Source: an uncultured Clostridia bacterium
Lineage (GTDB): Bacteria > Bacillota > Clostridia > Oscillospirales > Acutalibacteraceae
DNA: 64,000 nt
Assembly (NCBI GenBank): GCA_937877675.1
Contig: CALEIS010000135.1
Span: 173,557-237,556 of the forward strand
Direction of reading: 5' to 3'
Positions 4,601-39,981 of the stretch are shown here, in pieces. Both the position numbers and the translations under genes were made by a program. The notes below the pieces were generated by a model. That model ran no database searches and was not told the DNA's origin. It saw only the letters and a program-made list of their open reading frames with translations. Position 1 is the stretch's first letter, and each line of letters begins with the position of its first letter.

Positions 4601-5523
4601 TCAATGCTGACTTGTCTAGTTTGACGCATGGTAGTAATATGTTCGATACTTGTAATTATCTCGCAATATTCAACAGTGACATGCCTAATTTGACGAATGG
4701 TTCTTACATGTTCAATTCAACTAAACTCTCATCATTCAACCGTGACTTGTCTAGTTTGACGGATGGTCATTGGATGTTCTATCGTTGTAGTTATCTCACC
4801 ACATTCAACAGTGACTTGTCTAGTTTGATGTATGGTGAGAATATGTTCTATCGTTGTATTGCTCTCAAATCATTCTGTGGTGACTTGTCTAGTTTGATGA
4901 ATGGTTATCAGATGTTCGTGGGTTGTACTGCTCTTACTTCATTTACATCTGATTTGTCTAATTTGGGGGATGGTAGAAGTATGTTCAATGATTGTGCTTA
5001 TCTCACTTCATTCTGTGGTGACTTGTCTAGTTTGACGGATGGTTCTTGGATGTTCCTAAATTGTAAACTTGATACTGAATCAGTTGAAATTATTGCTGAC
5101 ACTATCAATGATGTAACAGGGTTTGCAGAGGGAGCTGGAGTTTCCAAGAGAATTGACATTAAGATTGGCAATACTACACCAAACGATGAGGAAGATGCAG
5201 CATTCAAACAGATGCAAGTCAAGGGCTGGAAGGTTTATGTAAATGGTTCTAATACTGAGTATGTTCCAAGAACAGGTGAAGCTTCACTTGATGAAACAGG
5301 TGAAACAACAGTTGCTCCTAAACCATACTGGGCTAAGCCTATTGAAGTAACTGAGGAAGAAGCCGAATTCGTGGGTGAAGATGGTAAGTTCTATCAGGTT
5401 GTAGGTGGTCAATTCATCTATGTAACTGACCCTGATACTTACGGAATGTTCGTAAGCCTTGAAGACGCTGTTGCTAACATGCGTTTGACAAAGTATGTAA
5501 AACCTGTTGAAGAAGAAATCTAA
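1672..5523 (+). CDS. giant tail-fibre / receptor-binding-like protein (1283 aa)
   Basis: Uninterrupted 3.85-kb ORF. It has a central Ala/Ser/Gln tract and a C-terminal array of ~26-aa Leu-rich repeats. A hairpin terminator follows. The antisense ORFs inside it are low-complexity artefacts. Confidence 0.75.
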   Translation: MSWISTNTTTDNKVYPKQISQDVLSFYHGFSKTPVEPEIKNGAATGYAATTLANATTKSGHTVLGSEVWASELPWFGFAPNKDVASTRVSGITNKNDLIRINDVGKDYIYIGKGGETFTKATWDTVWKEITLTNGMELANQYGDKVLRYYEKQRMQALESDNNAGIDSKGYATRLFVDESTHTAVTTVGQGSVIPQFAAATDSIKNGLTSSILNPVVYIDGTQKVPGTHFYDYNVSGTILWDSNVKSKNVTITCFRYIGKSVTAKTAEIESTIEDLKITAGAGITVTDGTKQKKGITTLTLGGSNGVTVAVNESTGAVTFGVDTATIATTASVTAISDRISAAASDITATSEKLVTGKAVYDYVSGATLNSGTQGDNQIQNASGDTANKLVTAAQVKEYVTENAQVTVTVGETDVTSTGFEFAGSTGSDVSLSAAMDANGKVTYSATLTKATVGTDGKILTGDENKAVSATDAKTIVDTSIAALSATGGAIATLTERVGQAESNAAASASAASASQTAAEGAKSEAAAAKTAAQNAQTAAEGAQSAAQAAQAASEAAKGEASASATAASQSATAAQGSATSASQSASAASASQTAAEAAQSAAESAAAEAKAAKEFVEATAEWQAGSDEELGNFTDASASGVVTGTTVKTVADEVLALAKSYSNGLHTTSVTYHVTDTLPTVPAGEEEKYKGRIYLVLTGLDGVVAADGDRIEYMYVQENGVWGWEQIGTTTADLSGYAKSVKINSSTYAASADNSGALDLGTVVTGLYNTLPTGVTSVTGVNLVNANSVYAGINNGIMEIGVADASADGKGLVQLAANVADGSTTDVTTAKAVKDYAQKALTVKDGRGYNVTENDLWGTTATLDENGNLTVAHNWVTNPNASNSVAWNTSITKVEDNGAYTSSSSIVNIQTDMIKNGQYMFKDCSELTSFSSDMPNLTNGDSMFQDCSHLTSFSSDVSRLTTGYSMFYHCSALTAFNADLSSLTHGSNMFDTCNYLAIFNSDMPNLTNGSYMFNSTKLSSFNRDLSSLTDGHWMFYRCSYLTTFNSDLSSLMYGENMFYRCIALKSFCGDLSSLMNGYQMFVGCTALTSFTSDLSNLGDGRSMFNDCAYLTSFCGDLSSLTDGSWMFLNCKLDTESVEIIADTINDVTGFAEGAGVSKRIDIKIGNTTPNDEEDAAFKQMQVKGWKVYVNGSNTEYVPRTGEASLDETGETTVAPKPYWAKPIEVTEEEAEFVGEDGKFYQVVGGQFIYVTDPDTYGMFVSLEDAVANMRLTKYVKPVEEEI
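3172..3532 (+). repeat. Ala/Ser/Gln low-complexity (coiled-coil-like) tract inside the fibre gene
   Basis: Translated run AAASASAASASQTAAEGAKSEAAAAKTAAQNAQTAAEGAQSAAQAAQAASEAAKGEASASATAASQSATAAQG... built from GCT/TCT/CAG-rich DNA. Confidence 0.8.
4393..5062 (+). repeat. tandem ~26-aa DUF285/BspA-like Leu-rich repeats (~9 full units)
   Basis: Repeating ..MF.dCs.LTsFnsDlSsLTnG.. units are visible in the translation (KDCSELTSFSSDMPNLTNGDSMF, QDCSHLTSFSSDVSRLTTGYSMF, and so on). Confidence 0.7.
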
Positions 5524-20614: not shown

Positions 20615-20804
20615 AAATGTGTTTTGTTTAAGTTGCTTAAGAATAACCCTCATGAGCGTAGTTCCCATGAGGGGGGTTAGGGTACTTCCCTAACGGATTA
20701 CTAATAACTCCGCAATTTCACTTACGAAGTAGTGAAACTCCGCATTCATTGTTACTGTTCATGACCAGTAGAATGTTGAAGCCCAAGTATAACCTAGTTT
20801 TGTC

Positions 20805-20878
20805 AGTTATGGTGAGAATTGAACTCACGACTTTCCTACGCATCACCGTATTCAGTTCTACCACTGAACTACATAACT
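20805..20878 (-). tRNA. tRNA-like gene with non-canonical anticodon arm
   Basis: Good acceptor (agttatg/cataact), D arm (gttc/gaac) and T arm (gtgag-ttcaatt-ctcac). The anticodon region folds only as tacg-gtgatg-cgta, a 6- or 8-nt loop. Confidence 0.35.
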
Positions 20879-25091: not shown

Positions 25092-25577
25092 TTAGTAAGA
25101 AGCAAGGTAAGTAATTAGTTCATCATCCTTCATTTTCTTGAGGAGATTCATGATACCATTGATAAGGTCTGCCATCATTGTTCCATCTTCGTCACCAAAG
25201 ATGTTCACAGCATTGTGACAATTTCCATAACGAAGTTCCTTATCAAAAACCTTGAGGAATACACGTCCTGCTACATAATACTCACGATGAAGCACATCAT
25301 TAGGAAGCTCTTTCTCCTCTGCATTCGTCATGTCATCATAAGCCACCATTGCAGCCTTATGAATGTTCATGACACTTTCCAAGAGATATGCAACCATATA
25401 AATTACATCATTCTTGGTGAAAATGTACTTACCCTCAACCTCAGTTCTCTTACCAAACCTGACAAAGAGGTCATGAAGGTCACGCTGACCACGCCAATAC
25501 AAGCACCGATTGTCATCACCTTCAAAGTTGATGTCATTATGATGCTTACTGTTATACATGTACATGTCTAATCCCAT
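25092..25577 (-). CDS. hypothetical protein
   Basis: 161-aa ORF. Confidence 0.55.
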   Translation of the reverse strand: MGLDMYMYNSKHHNDINFEGDDNRCLYWRGQRDLHDLFVRFGKRTEVEGKYIFTKNDVIYMVAYLLESVMNIHKAAMVAYDDMTNAEEKELPNDVLHREYYVAGRVFLKVFDKELRYGNCHNAVNIFGDEDGTMMADLINGIMNLLKKMKDDELITYLASY

Positions 25578-28999: not shown

Positions 29000-29084
29000 C
29001 GGGTGCAGAGGGACTCGAACCCCCAAGGGCATCCCTGCCCCAGCAATTTTCAAGATTGTGTCTTCATCCAGCCAGATTACACCC
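29000..29084 (-). tRNA. tRNA-Ser(UGA)
   Basis: Type II. Loop cttgaaa. Long variable arm ctggggcagggatgcccttg. Confidence 0.75.
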
Positions 29085-29203
29085 TTTTTTCCTACCAACT
29101 GTTGTCAATAGGGGAACATTTTCTCCGTCACGGCTAAAACAGTTCCATTAAAGTCCGCATGATAGTTATCATGATTATAAGAGAAATAATTTCTCAAACC
29201 TAG

Positions 29204-29293
29204 CGGGTGGTGGAGGATTTGAACCTCCGAACCGTATTAACTACGATTAAAGTCTTAGCAGGACTCCGCATTCAGCCACTCTGCCAACCACCC
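29204..29293 (-). tRNA. tRNA-Ser(GCU)
   Basis: Type II. gggtggt/accaccc. Anticodon arm gagtc-ctgctaa-gactt. Confidence 0.8.
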
Positions 29294-29299
29294 GAATTC

Positions 29300-29386
29300 A
29301 AGACACAAGCGGTGGATTTGAACCACCTTTAATTTATGTAGTTGCAGTACATTATATTATCCATTTAGATTTGCTGTAAGTGTCTT
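29300..29386 (-). ncRNA. ACAGCAAAU-box RNA 1 (tRNA-like: anticodon-type hairpin + T arm, closed by 7-bp helix)
   Basis: aagacac-tt-ACAGCAAATCTAA...atgta-ctgcaac-tacat...ggtgg-ttcaaat-ccacc-gctt-gtgtctt. It starts 5 nt after tRNA-Asp. Confidence 0.55.
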
Positions 29387-29391
29387 TTGAA

Positions 29392-29465
29392 CGAAGACGA
29401 AGGGGCTTGAACCCTCAACCTCAGCCGTGACAGGGCTGCGCTCTAACCAATTGAGCTACGCCTCC
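29392..29465 (-). tRNA. tRNA-Asp(GUC)
   Basis: Anticodon arm cagcc-ctgtcac-ggctg. Canonical D and T arms. Confidence 0.8.
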
Positions 29466-29471
29466 AATAAC

Positions 29472-29577
29472 AAGGCTCTTTCACTAATGAGATAACCAAC
29501 TTCTCTATATTTTCAACCGAAAACAATTGGACTTGAACCAATGAACTTTAGCTATGCTAATTTGCTGTATGAGCCTT
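29472..29577 (-). ncRNA. ACAGCAAAU-box RNA 2: circularly permuted tRNA mimic (YrlA/Y-RNA-like)
   Basis: Order is: aaggctc-at-ACAGCAAA; hairpin ttagc-ata-gctaa; agttc; T arm attgg-ttcaagt-ccaat; acceptor-like hairpin tgttttc-ggtt-gaaaata; ta; D arm gaga-agttggtta-tctc; ...gagcctt. Confidence 0.6.
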
Positions 29578-29582
29578 TAGAA

Positions 29583-29655
29583 TGGAGCTGACAGGAATCG
29601 AACCTGCTACCCTCTGCGTGCAAAGCAGATGCTCTACCAAATGAGCTACAACCCC
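29583..29655 (-). tRNA. tRNA-Ala(UGC)
   Basis: G3:U70 is present. Anticodon arm tctgc-tttgcac-gcaga. Confidence 0.85.
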
Positions 29656-29807
29656 AAAATTAGGAACAACCCCCATTATTTAGGGGGCTGCACCTTTTTA
29701 TAAACAAACAAAACACGAACCACAATCATCAACACAATGACTATGGTGTTCCCATCGTTTCACAACGAGAGGTAAGGAGAGGGGGACTACCCCCTCTCTA
29801 AGATTAT

Positions 29808-31340
29808 TTAGTCAACAAGCGTAATGTCAGCATAACGCTTACCATTAAGAACCTGTAACATGAAGTCAGCAGGAGTCTTACCTGAGAGAATTTGCTCAAA
29901 CATACCAGGCTTACAACCACCAACAAGAATTGCACCGTACTGATGCTGAGTTACAGGAAGATTACCGTAATCACGCTGAGCTGCATTCCAGAATACCAAC
30001 TTAGGTACTCGATACCCTGCACAAGAATACATAGTTCTGATACGGTCATATGCTGCTTCATTATTACCACCATATACACAAGCATCAAACTGCATATCAG
30101 AGATAATCACGATTGCTTCAGGCATCTCCTCAGCAGGAAGATTATGTCTCTTTGCTGCATTGAGTACCAACTCAAAGGTAGCAATTAGATTTGTAGAACC
30201 ACCCCAATCAGCAGAAGCAATGTGCTGTACCTTCTTCTTAAGTCCCCACTTGTCATCAAATTCAATGAGATGAGGATTAGACTCAAATGTAATGAACTTA
30301 TTCTTGAACACTCCCTTGTTATGCTCAGACACATACATACCAAGTGAGATTGCTACACCAATAGGCTTAGGATTATCACCCCAAGTCATTGAACCTGAAG
30401 TATCTACTACTGCAAGCCAATTCTTATGTGCTGCATCTCCAAAGTAATCAGGGAGAGAACGCCACATGTTGTCAAGCTGCTTTTCCTCAGTCTTACCTAC
30501 AGAATAGTCAAAGAACTTATTGACAATCTCATAAGGATAGAGAGTCTTGACATTCACCTTTGCCTCCTTGCAGTTTACATCTCCACGCTCAATAGCCTTG
30601 GAAACTGCATCAATGTGAGCACGATAACGCTCACCGTCCTTCTCATGGAAGCACTTACGATACTTCATGTTGGCGTTAGAAGGAACTTCGTTATAGTCAA
30701 AGGTGTAATCCTTGTTCGTAAGATAAGTCTCAAGAATGTTGATACGCTTACGAAGCATGGAAAGCGTCTTACGGTAATGCTTTTCTGTTACTCCCAACTC
30801 CTTGCACAACATCTTACCATAAAGGCGAGTGCGCTTAGAAGAAGCATTTACGGAAGGAAGCCACTTAGCCATAATTGAGATAGGCTTATCAGACTTATAG
30901 TTAGTAATGTCTGACTTCAACTGTTCAACTATGAACTGAATAATCTGCTTGTCAAGGTCATCATGAACTCCAAACAAACAGAACAAATCATCCCATCGAC
31001 CATAAGTGGGAATGTGAGAGATGATGTTAGAGTTAATAAATGTCTTAGGCTCAAGTGTGGCTACCTCATGGATACCCTTGCGGAATACCTCACGCTCACC
31101 CTGTCCACCGTTGCCACGAACATCACGAAGATAGAACAAACAACGAACTGTGGACAACTTGTCCTCTAACCATGCACTCCTTACCATAGTACGAATCCCA
31201 TTAGGATTCTTACGATAAGAAGCACCCTTAGCGAATAAATCGAGAACTGAATTCAACGTAGACTTCCAAGCAGCCATGCCGTTTGTAGTCTCAGTCAAAT
31301 TATCCGTCTCCTTGATTGCATCAAATAATGCGTTTCCCAT
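29808..31340 (-). CDS. Ro60-like protein: DUF2828-type helical domain + C-terminal vWA with MIDAS
   Basis: The N-terminus TETTNGMAAWKSTLNSVLDLF...LFYLRDVRGNGGQGERE matches my recollection of DUF2828. The C-terminus has VVDTSGSM (DxSxS MIDAS). This is the same two-domain layout as Ro60/Rsr. Confidence 0.6.
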   Translation of the reverse strand: MGNALFDAIKETDNLTETTNGMAAWKSTLNSVLDLFAKGASYRKNPNGIRTMVRSAWLEDKLSTVRCLFYLRDVRGNGGQGEREVFRKGIHEVATLEPKTFINSNIISHIPTYGRWDDLFCLFGVHDDLDKQIIQFIVEQLKSDITNYKSDKPISIMAKWLPSVNASSKRTRLYGKMLCKELGVTEKHYRKTLSMLRKRINILETYLTNKDYTFDYNEVPSNANMKYRKCFHEKDGERYRAHIDAVSKAIERGDVNCKEAKVNVKTLYPYEIVNKFFDYSVGKTEEKQLDNMWRSLPDYFGDAAHKNWLAVVDTSGSMTWGDNPKPIGVAISLGMYVSEHNKGVFKNKFITFESNPHLIEFDDKWGLKKKVQHIASADWGGSTNLIATFELVLNAAKRHNLPAEEMPEAIVIISDMQFDACVYGGNNEAAYDRIRTMYSCAGYRVPKLVFWNAAQRDYGNLPVTQHQYGAILVGGCKPGMFEQILSGKTPADFMLQVLNGKRYADITLVD

Positions 31341-31376
31341 AATTATTCTTTCTATGTTTATTATTGATAAAAATGG

Positions 31377-31521
31377 TCAATTCATTCGCCCTTGTCAGGA
31401 TAACTCTTCATATTTGAACAAGTCACTTTTTCTCCACGTTTTATAACCCAAATATAATGTGATTAGATTTGCTGTATGTGACTTTTATTAGGAATTACCC
31501 TAACAAGGATGAATGAATTAA
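31377..31521 (-). ncRNA. ACAGCAAAU-box RNA 3: long 27-bp stem enclosing a 7-bp helix, box and Pro-like anticodon hairpin
   Basis: Outer arms 31377-31403 and 31495-31521. Four of the five non-identical columns are G:U pairs only in the minus-strand RNA. Inner element 31420-31484: aagtcac-at-ACAGCAAATCTAA..ttata-tttgggt-tataa..gtgactt. It lies in the 5' leader of the Ro-like gene. Confidence 0.55.
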
Positions 31522-31522
31522 C

Positions 31523-31660
31523 AAGACCCCATTATTACATTTTTACTGCGCTCTACCAACTGAGCTACTCCCATCATTGCAACAGGAGGCAGGACTCGAA
31601 CCTGCGACATCAGGCTTACAAGGCATATGTTATAATTGATTGATTTGCTGTGTGGGTCTT
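31523..31660 (-). ncRNA. ACAGCAAAU-box RNA 4: circularly permuted tRNA mimic (YrlA/Y-RNA-like)
   Basis: Order is: aagaccc-ac-ACAGCAAATCAA..; hairpin tatgc-cttgtaa-gcctg; atgtc; T arm gcagg-ttcgagt-cctgc; acceptor-like hairpin ctcctgt-tgcaatg-atgggag; ta; D arm gctc-agttggta-gagc; ...gggtctt. Confidence 0.6.
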
Positions 31661-31666
31661 TAAGAA

Positions 31667-31749
31667 TGGGAGCGGTTGGACTCGAACCAACGAAGACCGA
31701 AGTCAGGAGATTTACAGTCTCCCCCCTTTGCCGCTCGGGACACACTCCC
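31667..31749 (-). tRNA. tRNA-Tyr(GUA)
   Basis: Type II. Anticodon arm ggaga-ctgtaaa-tctcc. Confidence 0.8.
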
Positions 31750-31993
31750 AAGTTTGTAACTATCCCTCACCACAGGGAGAACCGTTTCATAAGTTCTTTA
31801 TCCTAGTTACTGAAGATTTAGATTACATCGTACATAGAAGTTTGACGTGGATGTAATCATCCCAATGAGTATGTTCCTTACTTGCCCCCTCATCGGTTAC
31901 TGGGGCGACTGCTCTTTATACATTATCAGGGGAAAGCAGAAAATCCTTTACTGATAAGGGATGAGTTGGTGGTGTCCTACTCATCACAGGAGA

Positions 31994-32065
31994 CAAGGCA
32001 TAGGGGAATTGAACCCCTGTTTAGGGAATGAAAATCCCTTGTCCTAACCACTAGACGAATGCCTC
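31994..32065 (-). tRNA. tRNA-Glu(UUC)
   Basis: gaggcat-tc-gtct-agtggtta-ggac. Anticodon arm aggga-ttttcat-tccct. 4-nt variable loop. Confidence 0.8.
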
Positions 32066-32141
32066 ATGTGTTTTTAACATCGCTGTCAATCTTCATTAGA
32101 GGGTTTTTATTTCCTCTTCACCTTTGGCAGGTGACAAGAAC

Positions 32142-32170
32142 ATTATACATCAGTTCTTTTCTTTTGTCAA
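32142..32170 (-). promoter_or_regulatory. TTGACA-N17-TATAAT promoter cassette
   Basis: attata at 32142-47 and tgtcaa at 32165-70. Confidence 0.7.
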
Positions 32171-32209
32171 GCACTTTTTGAAAGTTTTTTGAACTTTTTT
32201 CTTGAAAAA

Positions 32210-32281
32210 CACTCCATGCGGGATTTGAACCCACCTTCACGATTTTAGAGACCGTTGTCCTAACCACTAGACGAATGGAGC
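32210..32281 (-). tRNA. amber suppressor tRNA (anticodon CUA)
   Basis: gctccat-tc-gtct-agtggtta-ggac-a-acggt-CTCTAAA-atcgt-gaag-gtggg-ttcaaat-cccgc-atggagt-g. Canonical 7-nt loop with U33 and CUA at positions 34-36 (plus-strand tag at 32246-48). Confidence 0.8.
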
Positions 32282-32288
32282 ATGAAAG

Positions 32289-32362
32289 TAGCGGGGATAG
32301 GACTCGAACCTATGACTCCACGAATATGAATCGTGTGTTCTAACCAACTGAACTACCCAGCC
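32289..32362 (-). tRNA. tRNA-Met or Ile2 (CAU)
   Basis: Anticodon arm cacga-ttcatat-tcgtg. One U:C mismatch in the acceptor stem. Confidence 0.7.
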
Positions 32363-32509
32363 ATTTTGATACCGATAACGTGTTTCTCATTACACCATAC
32401 CCACGACCGTTTAGTACGTACTCTAAGTCTTGACAGGCACAGGGAATCTCACCCCAAACATCACCGATACTAGCAGAAATTTTGCGCTAAGGATTTCTGC
32501 AAACCTTAA

Positions 32510-32581
32510 TCAGGGAGGCGAGACTCGAACTCGCAACCACTTGAACCCAAATCAAGCACTCTACCATTGAGCTACACCCTG
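32510..32581 (-). tRNA. tRNA-Pro(UGG)
   Basis: C1:G72. Anticodon arm cttga-tttgggt-tcaag. Confidence 0.75.
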
Positions 32582-33023
32582 AACTGAGGTTCTCACTACC
32601 ACTCGGAGAACACCTAAGTCTGTACACAACCTAGGTACATTATGCTTCATTACTCATAATGAAACGCTTTTGAGCATGTGTGACTCTTGCACAGGTAGCA
32701 CGTTGTCTACCTCGTTTTATAAGACGATGCACATCTTCGTCTCCGTAGATACACATTTATTATCTTCGCACCTGTATCTCATTATCTAAGCCTGATAATG
32801 CCAATCATGAACTTTTGATTGCTATCGTACACCCTATTCAGGTGAGGACTTGGTGCAGCATCTCATGTTTAACTTCCATGAGAAGAATGATAGTTTTACT
32901 ACTGCTATACTATCCAAACAGGGAAGCTCAGGTATTGCCTACCAAGGTTACTTCTTACTGCGAACCTCATAAACAGTCTACTTAGTATGATGAGTGCTTA
33001 TCTCTCATCTTTCATAAGTGGAG

Positions 33024-33095
33024 TAGCCCCTGACAGACTCGAACTGCCGACCAATTCGGTGTAAACGAACCGCTCTACCACTGAGCTAAAGGGCC
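33024..33095 (-). tRNA. tRNA-Val(UAC)
   Basis: Anticodon arm gttcg-tttacac-cgaat. Confidence 0.8.
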
Positions 33096-33128
33096 GTATG
33101 TTGTAGTATTTATCCTCGCAACAAGTAT

Positions 33129-33157
33129 ATTATATCATAGTTCTTTTTACTTGGCAA
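33129..33157 (-). promoter_or_regulatory. TTGCCA-N17-TATAAT promoter cassette
   Basis: attata at 33129-34 and tggcaa at 33152-57. Confidence 0.65.
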
Positions 33158-33189
33158 GATTTTTTTCGTATATTTGTTTAGTTTTTTAC

Positions 33190-33261
33190 AAGACACCTTC
33201 AATCTAACCCTAGAATGACAATACTTTAGTCGGTGTAAATTTGATTTGCTGTATGTGCCTT
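33190..33261 (-). ncRNA. ACAGCAAAU-box RNA 5 (72 nt, 7-bp closing helix)
   Basis: aaggcac-at-ACAGCAAATCAAA....gtgtctt. It starts 5 nt after tRNA-Ile. The interior fold is unresolved. Confidence 0.45.
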
Positions 33262-33266
33262 TAGAA

Positions 33267-33340
<74 letters not shown>

Positions 33341-33422: not shown

Positions 33423-33899
33423 TTATAATTTATTGACATCAAGTAATCCATAATGAGCTTCTCTATGACAGTTTGCACATAAAAGAACACATTTGGATAC
33501 TTCATCATTTATAGTATCCATTGAAAGTTGACCAAGTTTTGCTATATTCAATTCAAAACTTTTTTCATCAGGGTTTTTATGATGAAATTCCAATGCTTGA
33601 GGACAACGGTTGTAACCACATGCCATACATTTACCGCCAAACTTGGTATCAATTATTTGTTGTTTGCGTTCTCTTGCACGATTACGATTACTTACAGTTA
33701 TTCGCTTATTTCTTTTTTTACGAAGAAATTCTTTTTCTTCCTCCGTATAATCTTTTACATTGAAAGGTCTATATTTAGTTTTCAATCCATATTTTCCTAA
33801 CCAATGACGAACCGAACTAAAACTTTTATCAAGTTCTTTACAGATGTCACGGATAGAAAGATTCTTGTCAATTAGTTTTTGTAATTCTTCTCGTTCCAT
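33423..33899 (-). CDS. HNH homing endonuclease with N-terminal HTH
   Basis: LEFHHKNPDEKSFELN...LLCANCHREAHYG. Confidence 0.8.
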   Translation of the reverse strand: MEREELQKLIDKNLSIRDICKELDKSFSSVRHWLGKYGLKTKYRPFNVKDYTEEEKEFLRKKRNKRITVSNRNRARERKQQIIDTKFGGKCMACGYNRCPQALEFHHKNPDEKSFELNIAKLGQLSMDTINDEVSKCVLLCANCHREAHYGLLDVNKL

Positions 33900-37833: not shown

Positions 37834-39981
37834 TTAGGCGTTATGATTCCAAACAGAACCTTCAGCAGGAGTTACTGTTACAGCAGTAGGAGCAGTAACC
37901 TGTACAGCAGGGCTGATTGGGAATGCATAGGAAGGAGCAGTACCAGTGGTTTCTGCATGAGCAGCATAACCGTTAGGATACATCTTATTGTCGTTCTGAA
38001 CACCAGGGTTGGAGAAGTCGTCAATAAGGATTACATGGTAGTAGAGGTGAGAACCGAAGATATTGTCCATTACACCGTAACGAGTCATAAGACCTACGTG
38101 TGGTGAGAAGGAGTTAGTATCGGTTGCAGTCTGAACCATGATAGGAATGTATGGGCAGTAAATGATACCTGCATCATACGTATCAGCACCCTTATAACCA
38201 AGCATACAATAGTTAGGAAGTTTAACTTCCTGCTCAGTTGTGTCGAACATATCGCCATAACCCATACCGTAGTCATCAGTGCTGTAAACGGCAGTTCTCT
38301 CATCAATGTAAACATTGAACTTGTTACCACCAAGAGTACCAGCAGCAGCGGTCTGAGCATTGTTAAGCTCGATGGTGTTGTTTACCTGCATAGGAACATA
38401 GTCCTCAAGCATCTGAAGAAGAGCAGCAACGTCAGGAGTACATACGATGAAGTTAGCAGCACCACGGTGGTTGCGAACACGCATTCTCATAGCCATCTTG
38501 ATAATGAACTGATAGAATGCACGAGCACGCTCACCCATCCAACGAGCGTCAGCGAGCTTACCAGACCATACAGACCATTCATTGTGCTTGAGAGCTGTGA
38601 AGAGCATACGAACAGTCATTTCACGGTCGATTTCAGCCTGAAGCTCATAGCTCATCTGCTGAGTAGCTTCGGTGTCGATGTCAATACCGTTGGTGTTCTT
38701 GAGGTCTTCCTGAGTTTCAAGTGTCCAAGAGGTTGAAAGTCTACGAGTACCAGCTTCAACAGCCTGCTTCTCGAAACCGAAGGAGGTACGAGCGATAGCA
38801 CCAGTAGCTTCAAAAGCATGAACGCGAGCAGCGATACCAGTATCCTCAAGACGGAACTGCCAACGACCACCTGCAAGAGGCTGGAGGAGTTGCTTGTCCT
38901 GAGCACCTGTGAAGCGGGTATCAAGACGCTGATAACCCATTTCAGAGTTACCCAAGTCCCACTTACCAGTTACTTCATTGAACTTGATGTCAGAAATCTG
39001 AACGTCACCCTTAGCAGGGTCAGAGATACCAACAATCTTAGTACCATCTGTAGCATCCTCTACACGCTTTTCAGCAGCAGTCTAAATTTTGTCAAGAAGT
39101 TCTGTCTCGGATGAATCAACACCACGCTGAGCAGCAACAACAACAGCTTCCTTAATCTTGGCTTCTGTGATGGTTGTAAGTGTAGCATAATCAACTTCAC
39201 CAATAATCTGTGTAAGAACAGGGTGAACGATGTACTTCTTATTCTTTTCAGAAGCAGCCTTTGTACTTACGAAAGCAGGGTTTGCAACGATTGCAGGGAA
39301 ACTCTGTGGGAAACCATTACCAACAACAGTTACAAGAGTAGCACTACCTTCGGCTGTTGAAGTAGCGTCAGTAATAGTAAGCTTAGCCTTGGTCTCTACA
39401 CCACGGATACCCTGAGCGGTATACTCAGTAGCAGCAGAACCATTGTATACAGTATCACGCTGAGCATATTCAGTTGTTTCACCAGAAACACGAGGACTGT
39501 GAACGTGCTCTGTGGAGCTGTCACCAAGAGCGTTAGCACCCTTGAGGTAACGATAACGGATAGCGAATGCAAGAGCTACAGGGCCAGGCATAGGCTGAAC
39601 ACCAACCGTTTCATTGCTCATAAGAGCAGGATAGATACGGCGAACCATAGGAAGAATAGTCGTTGGGTTACGCATGTCACCAGGAGCATAGAAGTCACTG
39701 TTGCCAAGCTCACCACCGTGAAGACCATTCTGAGGACCGAACATAGCGGTTGTCATTGCAGGACTGTTCTCATTGAGCCAACGCATCTGGTTCTCAAGAA
39801 GCATAGCGGTGTTGTTACGAACAGCCTTGGAGCGAATAGGAGCGAAACCAGCAGTACACTCAAGAAGCTCAGACCAGTTCTTTACTGCCTTGCGAGTACG
39901 CTGACCATTTTTCTGCGTCTGGGTAAGGCGAGCCTTAGGAGCAGCCTGTGCAGTACGCTTTGTTTTAGTAATAATAGCCAT
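37834..39981 (-). CDS. major capsid protein, T4 gp23-like, with one in-frame TAG
   Basis: Track ORFs 39082..39981 and 37834..38955 share a frame. They are joined through TAG 39082-84 with no other stop (..ELLDKI*TAAEKRVED..). The N-terminal part has gp23-type motifs LLENQ..WL, PMVRRIYPALMSNETVGVQPMPGPVALAFAIRY. Confidence 0.75.

Follow-up and report, generated by a model that had tools for sequence, protein, structure and literature searches.

A conserved RNA family beside a Ro60-like protein gene of phages points to a viral counterpart of the Ro/Y-RNA particle

A protein gene and five box elements within a tRNA array

The locus described here lies in a 64-kb stretch of contig CALEIS010000135.1 (GenBank assembly GCA_937877675.1, positions 173,557 to 237,556), which was analysed over its whole length and is referred to as the window; coordinates are those of the window unless a locus is named. 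On its minus strand, an array of about 29 tRNA genes detected with ARAGORN and Rfam encloses the gene of a 510-amino-acid (aa) Ro60-like protein and, around this gene and also on the minus strand, five elements designated E1 to E5. Ro60/Y-RNA particles are conserved from bacteria to humans, and our data point to a widespread viral counterpart with a previously undescribed Y-like RNA family. It is the partner RNA family that is new. The Ro-likeness of the protein was already recognised, because mycobacteriophage homologues carry the annotation 'Ro-like RNA binding protein'. The features on which the analysis centres are the following.

29203..29656, minus strand: tRNA-Ser, tRNA-Asp and tRNA-Ala, which bracket E1 and E2 (ARAGORN and Rfam)
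29300..29386, minus strand: E1, helix AAGACAC/GTGTCTT (29386 to 29300), box at 29369-29377
29472..29577, minus strand: E2, helix AAGGCTC/GAGCCTT (29577 to 29472), box at 29560-29568
29808..31340, minus strand: gene of the 510-aa Ro60-like protein with a helical DUF2828 N-terminal domain and a DUF7788/vWA C-terminal domain (open reading frame (ORF), Pfam, AlphaFold/Foldseek)
31377..31521, minus strand: E4, outer hairpin with the core at 31420-31484, helix AAGTCAC/GTGACTT, box at 31467-31475
31523..31660, minus strand: E3, helix AAGACCC/GGGTCTT (31660 to 31523), box at 31643-31651
31666..31750, minus strand: tRNA-Tyr, directly 5' of E3 (ARAGORN and Rfam)
33190..33261, minus strand: E5, helix AAGGCAC/GTGTCTT with one G-U pair (33261 to 33190), box at 33244-33252
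33267..33340, minus strand: tRNA-Ile, directly 5' of E5 (ARAGORN and Rfam)

A preliminary description of the window had named five elements with paired ends and a common box, and all five are present on the minus strand where it had placed them. In each of them a 7-bp terminal helix (AAGRCNC/GNGYCUU) is followed by the unpaired box ACAGCAAAU; the 5' strand of the helix (AAG-R-C-N-C) is separated from the box by 2 nt, and its complement (G-N-G-Y-C-T-T) is found 65-138 nt downstream. Apart from the G-U pair in E5 the proposed common helix was borne out, and minimum-free-energy folds keep it in five of five elements while leaving the box wholly (E4 and E5) or at least largely unpaired. Exactly five copies of the 9-mer ACAGCAAAT, one per element at the box positions listed above, are present in the window, and all five are on the minus strand. 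Its chance expectation is about 1.0, and none of 100 shuffles reached five occurrences. Two details of the preliminary description needed correction: the bases (C/T)(A/T)A said to flank the box do not hold for E2, where the next three bases are TAG, and the elements are not strictly 'ORF-free', as a few mechanical ORFs of 44-77 aa overlap them, although these are without support. A sixth copy was found neither by a relaxed pattern scan nor by a covariance-model scan of the whole window.

Four of the elements adjoin tRNA genes. As had been noted, E1, E2, E3 and E5 start just after the 3' ends of tRNA-Asp, tRNA-Ala, tRNA-Tyr and tRNA-Ile, the measured distance from the discriminator base being 5-6 nt (6 nt for E3, 5 nt for E5) and the linker having the sequence TTC(A/T)(A/T)(A). 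E1 is situated between tRNA-Asp and tRNA-Ser with linkers of 5-6 nt, and E2 between tRNA-Ala and tRNA-Asp with 5-nt linkers, so that their 3' ends lie 5-6 nt before the next tRNA (Ser and Asp, respectively). Neither ARAGORN nor Rfam, the latter with a threshold of 29 bits, calls any of the five a tRNA; the best Rfam tRNA score, 17.2 bits, was obtained inside E3.

The sequences enclosed by the helices differ. E1 contains the T-arm-like hairpin GGTGGTTCAAATCCACC, a T-arm-like hairpin is also present inside E2, and E5 is short. E3 encloses a permuted tRNA-like module of the YrlA type, in the order T-arm, acceptor-like hairpin, D-arm. The core of E4 is nested in a long outer hairpin of about 27 bp (31521 to 31377), which ends 37 nt upstream of the start codon of the protein gene and is a candidate RNase III-type release site; the fold of E4 has a free energy of -46.4 kcal/mol (z -6.1). 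Matches to the covariance model described below were obtained for E1 (36.8 bits, E 3e-6) and E2 (28.2 bits, E 3.6e-4), neither of which belongs to the seed, and for the seed members E4 (47.4 bits) and E5 (37.2 bits).

All five elements are kept in synteny in two orthologous loci, L204 and L206, whose proteins are 87% and 76% identical to that of the window. The T-stem of E1 shows compensatory changes in these relatives, from GGTGG/CCACC to GATAG/CTATC, and the outer hairpin and helix-box region of E4 are 100% conserved in both, with divergence confined to the insert. A 28-nt hairpin-forming insertion, CGAGTATCTCATACGAGGTATTCAAAAT, is present directly after the box in the E3 orthologue of one relative and in the E1 orthologue of another (L204 5655-5820 and L206 7642-7752); it could reflect a mini-insertion or an exchange between paralogous RNAs.

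The 510-aa protein contains the motif VVDTSGSM, and Pfam assigns it DUF2828 (E 2.7e-25), DUF7788 (E 4.5e-43) and, weakly, VWA_2, in agreement with the DUF2828 plus vWA architecture and DTSGSM MIDAS (metal-ion-dependent adhesion site) recognised at the outset. The MIDAS is complete, with D313, S315, S317, T383 and D415 invariant among 46 homologues. An AlphaFold2 model built from these homologues (pLDDT 86, pTM 0.87) was compared with the PDB by Foldseek, and ranks 1-11 are all Ro60, Rsr or phage Ro60 structures, from Xenopus and human Ro60 to Deinococcus Rsr and the Ro60 of Thermus phage phiLo (ranks 4 and 10). These matches extend over the full length (520-590 columns, E 2e-8 to 5e-5, TM 0.34-0.57, about 0.5), whereas vWA-only matches begin only at E 2e-3. 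Comparison with BFVD structures likewise reaches TROVE and 'Ro-like' phage proteins. As modelled, the protein has the Ro60 fold, that is, a ring of alpha-helical repeats closed by a vWA domain.

The protein family comprises more than 3600 clusters of homologues and occurs in at least 709 sequenced phage isolate genomes, among them Felixounavirus, Listeria P100/A511-like, Enterococcus, Staphylococcus, Campylobacter, Vibrio and Bacillus Tsamsa-like phages as well as mycobacteriophages. Giant viruses also carry members. The LeBron homologue is moderately toxic on overexpression.

An RNA family with a covarying helix, linked to the gene

The helix together with the adjacent unpaired box WW-ACAGCAA-WU, hereafter called the handle, defines a genuine and widespread RNA family. 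It was characterised in 80 viral contigs (858 kb) that had been picked solely for encoding a homologue of the protein at 35-49% identity. The heptamer ACAGCAA occurs 358 times on the gene strand of these loci versus 36 times on the opposite strand, with 27-44 occurrences of reversed or complemented controls. An element was counted as complete if a perfect 7-bp helix accompanied the box at exactly the 2-nt offset; 69 of the 80 loci contain 190 such elements between them, and each of three controls gave two. From 353 non-identical copies, which have a median length of 71 nt and display 128 different helix sequences, the consensus W-AAGRCNC-WW-ACAGCAA-W-U ... A-A-N-GNGYCUU-G was derived.

Covariation in homologous loci, to which the preliminary description had looked, is abundant. 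Because circularity had to be avoided, 241 elements were re-selected on the conserved positions of both strands only. Complementarity at the three variable pairs amounts to 90%, 98% and 96%, against shuffled means of 51-74%; no shuffle equalled the observed values, and position 6 is represented by all four Watson-Crick types. A covariance model seeded with 55 short copies, the kind of search suggested earlier for phage sequences, returned 152 matches with E<=0.01 from the 80 loci, to which the strand opposite the gene contributed none. In the model alignment 99.7% of cells are paired, double changes are found at seven of seven pairs, and the covariation score is 0.68 (0.19 for shuffles and at most 0.14 for slid controls). 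As this alignment is fitted to the model, it is the test on 241 elements that matters. Base identity is conserved at helix pairs 2, 3, 5 and 7, in the box and at the 3' G, and pairs 4 and 6 covary freely, a mixture that is typical of a protein-binding site. Neither does Rfam 15 contain a model that recognises the handle RNA, nor did a non-exhaustive literature search yield a description of it.

Multi-copy elements with terminal inverted repeats could also be miniature mobile DNA, either of the type of miniature inverted-repeat transposable elements or associated with a homing endonuclease, and the HNH-type gene at 33423-33899 in the tRNA array of the window as well as the appearance of the same 28-nt insertion at the same place in different paralogues would fit such an origin. 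We consider it extremely improbable. The repeats differ among copies and yet stay complementary (128 variants with compensatory changes), which indicates RNA pairing rather than a transposase site; orientation follows the gene without exception (152 to 0); the elements hold their orthologous positions in phages with 76-87% identical proteins; and the inserts are unrelated to one another.

Being both unpaired and better conserved than the rest of the element, the box ACAGCAAAU might alternatively act as an antisense seed that pairs with a host or phage RNA, the helix being a mere scaffold. This appears very unlikely, since the hosts span four bacterial phyla and the target would therefore have to be universal. 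We know of no universal RNA complementary to the box, which is a weak argument. Moreover, the conserved identity of helix pairs 2, 3, 5 and 7 and of the G after the helix fits recognition by a protein better.

Across distant phages, the elements strictly share the orientation of the gene and are tightly linked to it in position. Upstream of the gene lie 163 of the 190 complete elements, 81 of them within 500 nt of its start, and 54 of the 80 loci have an element within that distance. The reverse test, in which a viral collection was scanned with an 18-nt RNA pattern alone, returned 120 stretches. The helix is present in 67 of these, and of the 67, 37 contain the gene and 55 (82%) contain tRNAs; the 53 stretches without the helix, mostly chance matches, include the gene in five cases. 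Several of the apparently gene-less stretches belong to contigs known from the homologue set to carry the gene elsewhere. Where the gene is present, all 47 motif instances are on its strand, at a median distance of 215 nt.

Cultured phages from several host phyla, with Salmonella/E. coli represented by Felix O1 and Bas63, illustrate the arrangement. In Felix O1, ORF86 is closely followed by four elements located between tRNAs, and the last of the four has a YrlA-like module. Bas63 has the same four elements downstream of bas63_0130, between annotated tRNAs, at about 82072-82138, 82239-82296, 82694-82761 and 82781-82906 of MZ501086.1 (5712-5778, 5879-5936, 6334-6401 and 6421-6546 of locus L208). 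Listeria phages LP-064 and CKA15 have three elements in an unannotated gap directly upstream of the gene, preceded by a sigma-A-like promoter site (TTGACA...TATCAT); in CKA15 they fall within about 25287-25555 of OR088597.1, minus strand. The covariance model further detected five elements in Bacillus phage Tsamsa, three each in a Staphylococcus and an Enterococcus phage, and two in Campylobacter phage PC14. In mycobacteriophage DirkDirk it detected two, to which a third, YrlA-like element was added by eye; all three RNAs lie after the gene, and a terminator-like hairpin with a subsequent run of T closes the series.

The accumulation of elements just upstream of the gene and on its strand (81 of 190 within 500 nt) is also what would be expected if they served in cis as leader or operator sites. 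Binding of the protein or another factor to the handle would then autoregulate the protein's own mRNA, whose translation or stability would be controlled via a long 5' leader, and distant copies would be by-products of duplication. Autoregulation via a mimic of the RNA target is well established among RNA-binding proteins, and the position of E4, 37 nt before the start codon and with hairpin and handle invariant in orthologues, likewise speaks for a leader. Nevertheless we regard this explanation as unlikely, because many elements are located downstream of the gene (in Felix O1, Bas63 and the Staphylococcus and Mycobacterium phages) and others lie kilobases off between tRNAs. With tRNAs 5-6 nt away on both sides, E1 and E2 would be cut out in the course of ordinary tRNA maturation, and a leader would have no use for the elaborate tRNA-like modules found in about a fifth of the elements. 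A leader function is compatible with a ribonucleoprotein (RNP) and does not exclude one.

Likeness to Ro/Y-RNA particles and a possible mechanism

The inserts closed by the handle fall into short and tRNA-like forms. Of 363 distinct elements, 78% are without a tRNA-like motif and short (median 66 nt) with an AU-rich insert. A tRNA-like motif is present in 79 (22%), 77 of which (about 21% of all elements) have a T-arm. The T-arm-bearing elements are 115-125 nt long and some are permuted in the YrlA order of T-arm, acceptor-like hairpin and D-arm; in a few elements the insert is a tRNA body of normal order whose anticodon arm is that of Ile-GAU or Gln-UUG. Rfam at its gathering thresholds finds only tRNAs in the window. 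At E<=10 a sub-threshold YrlA match to E3 is added, E1, E2, E4 and E5 having none, and no other described family fits. The E3 match is full-length (43.9 bits, E 2.4e-7), with good alignment of the tRNA-like core and mismatched outer stems, and it supports the Y-RNA analogy drawn in the preliminary description, even though the score stays below the gathering score of 69. Elements of locus L031 (50.3 bits) and DirkDirk (39.8 bits) give sub-threshold YrlA matches of the same kind, good in the tRNA-like core and poor in the outer stems.

On these grounds it is likely that the elements are Y-RNA-like non-coding RNAs (ncRNAs) whose handle is bound by the neighbouring Ro60-like DUF2828/vWA ring to form a Ro/Y-RNA-type particle. 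The earlier Ro/Y-RNA-type interpretation of the locus is supported in this respect; the protein-RNA complex itself is inferred, as are transcription, processing, binding, the roles of the modules and the biological function. The handle, made of the 5' and 3' ends of the RNA, would close a variable module that is either a short hairpin or a tRNA-like body. Strand bias and adjacency suggest that the RNAs are co-transcribed with the tRNA array and the neighbouring gene. In the window, they would then be released by RNase P acting at the 5' end of the next tRNA together with 3'-end processing of the preceding one, as suggested by the linkers of only 5-6 nt, and cleavage within the long outer hairpin of E4 would set that element free. 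Release punctuated by tRNAs was rejected as a universal mechanism; it fits the window and only a minority of elements elsewhere. Following release, the Ro60-like ring would recognise the handle, a step for which co-occurrence and the analogy with Ro60 argue. More speculatively, the variable module could tether or mimic tRNA-related partners or gate the RNA-binding surface of the protein, and the particle would probably serve RNA surveillance or counter-defence during infection.

The last proposal is based on the finding that gp130 of phage Bas63, which is a member of the same family as the window protein, counters the Ppl defence. In the PhageMaP preprint, gp130 was described as Ro60-like and 'some tRNA genes' near it were guessed to be Y RNAs (PMC11482910). 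The Listeria protein CKA15_055 is a further member; it was detected in purified virions and matches Rsr in HHpred, and very abundant, unannotated ncRNAs near tRNA genes, upstream of CKA15_055, were speculated to be Y RNAs (PMC12282133). The Y-RNA idea has thus been floated in both papers, neither of which identifies or names the box RNAs, the three of CKA15 being located just upstream of CKA15_055. The most abundant phage transcripts of that study, CKA15_059-061 (PMC12282133), were considered as box elements and rejected, since they derive from a different region about 1.2 kb further upstream and are without the box. They are a different ncRNA, encoded in an ORF-poor stretch of about 600 nt (L083, OR088597.1, about 1810-2400) behind a promoter-like site, TTGAC...TATAGT.

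Several observations weigh against the proposed particle. At the level of the protein, the relationship to Ro60/Rsr is seen with the AlphaFold model and Foldseek and with none of the sequence methods tried: a Pfam scan at E<=1 gives DUF2828, DUF7788 and VWA_2 only and no match to TROVE (PF05731), and neither phmmer nor hmmsearch with a 46-sequence profile found Ro60 among all PDB sequences. At the level of the RNA, the handle is without the known Ro-binding motifs of Y RNAs, GNCGAAN0-1G and GGUCCGA. Eleven of the 80 loci lack a complete element within 5 kb of the gene in the pattern scan, and the locus of Vibrio phage nt-1 gave no covariance-model match at E<=0.1. Only 15 of the 190 elements start, and 29 end, within 10 nt of a tRNA. 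RNA-repair genes are rare near the gene, RtcB being encoded within 5 kb of it in only three of the 80 loci, and the window has none. Furthermore, gp130 alone, supplied from a plasmid or by T7, rescues T7 on Ppl (PMC11482910), so at least one activity of the protein is independent of the phage RNAs; the RNAs, instead of being essential, may specify or modulate what the protein does. Finally, some handles surround sequences that score as complete tRNAs, as in L031 (4671-4786, around a Gln-UUG tRNA at 4696-4768 scoring 67.5 bits) and L061 (1978-2080, around a 'Phe-AAA' tRNA scoring 55.3 bits). Processing of such a tRNA from the transcript would split the handle into two halves, and the helix could instead have a processing role in these cases. 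The missing TROVE match, the missing GNCGAA motif and the scores below the Rfam threshold lead us to regard the system as a divergent Ro60-fold protein family with a Y-like RNA family of its own.

Complete tRNAs within handles are likewise what would be expected if helix and box were a processing or stability cassette of phage tRNA operons, addressed by a host or phage nuclease or chaperone. The cassette would be unrelated to the DUF2828 protein and linked to it only by shared residence in tRNA arrays. The high proportion of tRNA-containing stretches among the pattern-selected true elements and the four of five window elements that abut tRNA 3' ends are consistent with this explanation. However, elements also accompany the gene in tRNA-free loci (L003, L037 and L046) and in DirkDirk, where no tRNA is annotated; they cluster in the 500 nt upstream of the gene instead of being spread evenly through the arrays; few start or end close to a tRNA, as the above counts show; and most of them, short and with an AU-rich insert, enclose nothing that needs processing. 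A cassette of this kind therefore seems distinctly improbable to us.

RNA-repair genes were also considered as family-wide partners and dropped because of the rarity of RtcB in the loci. Listeria phage LP-064 (L082, 9846-15223) has an RtcB-like ligase, an RNA ligase, an HD phosphohydrolase and a phosphoesterase within about 6 kb after the gene, and this RNA-repair neighbourhood of P100-like phages recalls the bacterial rsr-rtcBA operon.

Among known systems, the proposed particle most readily invites comparison with bacterial Rsr and its YrlA and YrlB RNAs (PMC4201824; RF02553). Both have a ring-shaped helical-repeat domain combined with a vWA/MIDAS fold, ncRNA genes within a few kilobases on the same strand, and RNA termini that pair into a stem beside a conserved unpaired 5' motif, the ends of the window RNAs being predicted. 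Both also have long variants, some of them here with a permuted tRNA-like module, and short variants without it, like YrlB, and the long and short forms found here parallel YrlA and YrlB of Salmonella (PMC4201824). By contrast, the window protein belongs to DUF2828/DUF7788 and not to TROVE, with no HMMER link to Ro60, and the handle reads AAGRCNC-WW-ACAGCAAWU ... GNGYCUU-G instead of GNCGAAN0-1G, the conserved 5' motif of YrlA that is thought to contact Rsr (PMC4201824). YrlA scores amount to 40-50 bits versus the gathering score of 69, the copy number is higher here (2-5 or more per locus), box elements are often embedded in tRNA arrays, and an RNA-repair operon of the rsr-rtcBA type is usually absent. 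Chen et al. (2014; PMC4201824), who described the YrlA motif and list 22 phages with YrlA, searched only genomes with annotated TROVE proteins.

Thermus phage phiLo offers a viral parallel: its Ro60 binds two Y-like RNAs with a CGAA bulge, Yrl1 and Yrl2, which are encoded just upstream, and also host polynucleotide phosphorylase (PNPase) (PMC12135203; PDB 9KOP, 9L5Y). The phage-encoded Ro60 fold, the position of the RNA genes and a stem of 5' and 3' ends flanking a bulge with a conserved motif are shared features. phiLo Ro60 is, however, a recognisable Ro60 homologue with CGAA-motif RNAs, whereas the protein described here is of another sequence family and its RNAs have another motif; and the phiLo particle is known from binding, cryo-electron microscopy and PNPase data, the window family from sequence and predicted structure. 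In metazoan Y RNAs, too, the paired termini form the protein-binding stem and the remainder a variable effector module, and the protein fold is the same. The window family differs from them in having neither the bulged-C GGUCCGA helix nor a La-type U tail nor an RNA polymerase III context, and tRNA-like modules are absent from metazoan Y RNAs.

It is tempting to speculate further that the particle is modular, with a single handle docking interchangeable RNA modules onto the Ro60-like ring. The modules would be tRNA bodies with Ile-GAU or Gln-UUG anticodon arms, permuted mimics of the YrlA type and short hairpins; they would form a panel of tRNA decoys or sensors directed against host defences that target tRNA or RNA, or would redirect RNA decay and repair enzymes of the host, and the protein may be delivered with the virion. 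We advance this idea as a tentative one that is rather doubtful at present. If true, phage counter-defence would gain a new class built on RNA mimicry, and the long-unexplained tRNA-like domain of bacterial Y RNAs would acquire a testable function.

From a practical viewpoint, the family spans the laboratory phages Felix O1 and Bas63 and the P100-type Listeria biocontrol phages, and one member, gp130, already has a counter-defence phenotype against Ppl. The coordinates of the partner RNAs provide targets for deletion, tagging and pull-down in tractable E. coli and Salmonella systems, and the compact conserved handle is suited to structural work. Box RNAs would explain many 'empty' gaps in phage tRNA arrays, and phage annotation would improve because short false ORFs are currently called over them.

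Other features of the window

Two further sequences on the minus strand match tRNA models, and the array may therefore exceed 29 genes: a tRNA at 20804-20878 (Rfam, 47.9 bits) that was missed by ARAGORN, and a tRNA-like sequence at 29001-29084 that scores 36.7 bits with the tRNA-Sec model, below its gathering score of 47. Between tRNA-Lys and tRNA-Phe, inside the array, a 158-aa ORF (33423-33899, minus strand) with a match to HTH_38 and HNH-like Cys/His motifs (CxxC ... HH ... CxxCH) probably encodes a homing endonuclease. Two inter-tRNA stretches of the minus strand, at 32583-33022 (about 440 nt) and 31751-31991 (about 240 nt), are without a convincing ORF, a box or an Rfam match at E<=10 and may hold other, unrelated ncRNAs.

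The gene of a T4-type (Gp23) major capsid protein (37834-39981, minus strand) consists of two ORFs split by a single in-frame TAG (39082-39084), the two halves being joined by 126 nt of in-frame sequence. A suppressor tRNA with a CUA anticodon, labelled 'tRNA-Pyl' by ARAGORN, is encoded in the array at 32209-32282 (minus strand). The combination of the TAG-split capsid gene with this tRNA suggests that TAG is recoded in the late genes of this phage.

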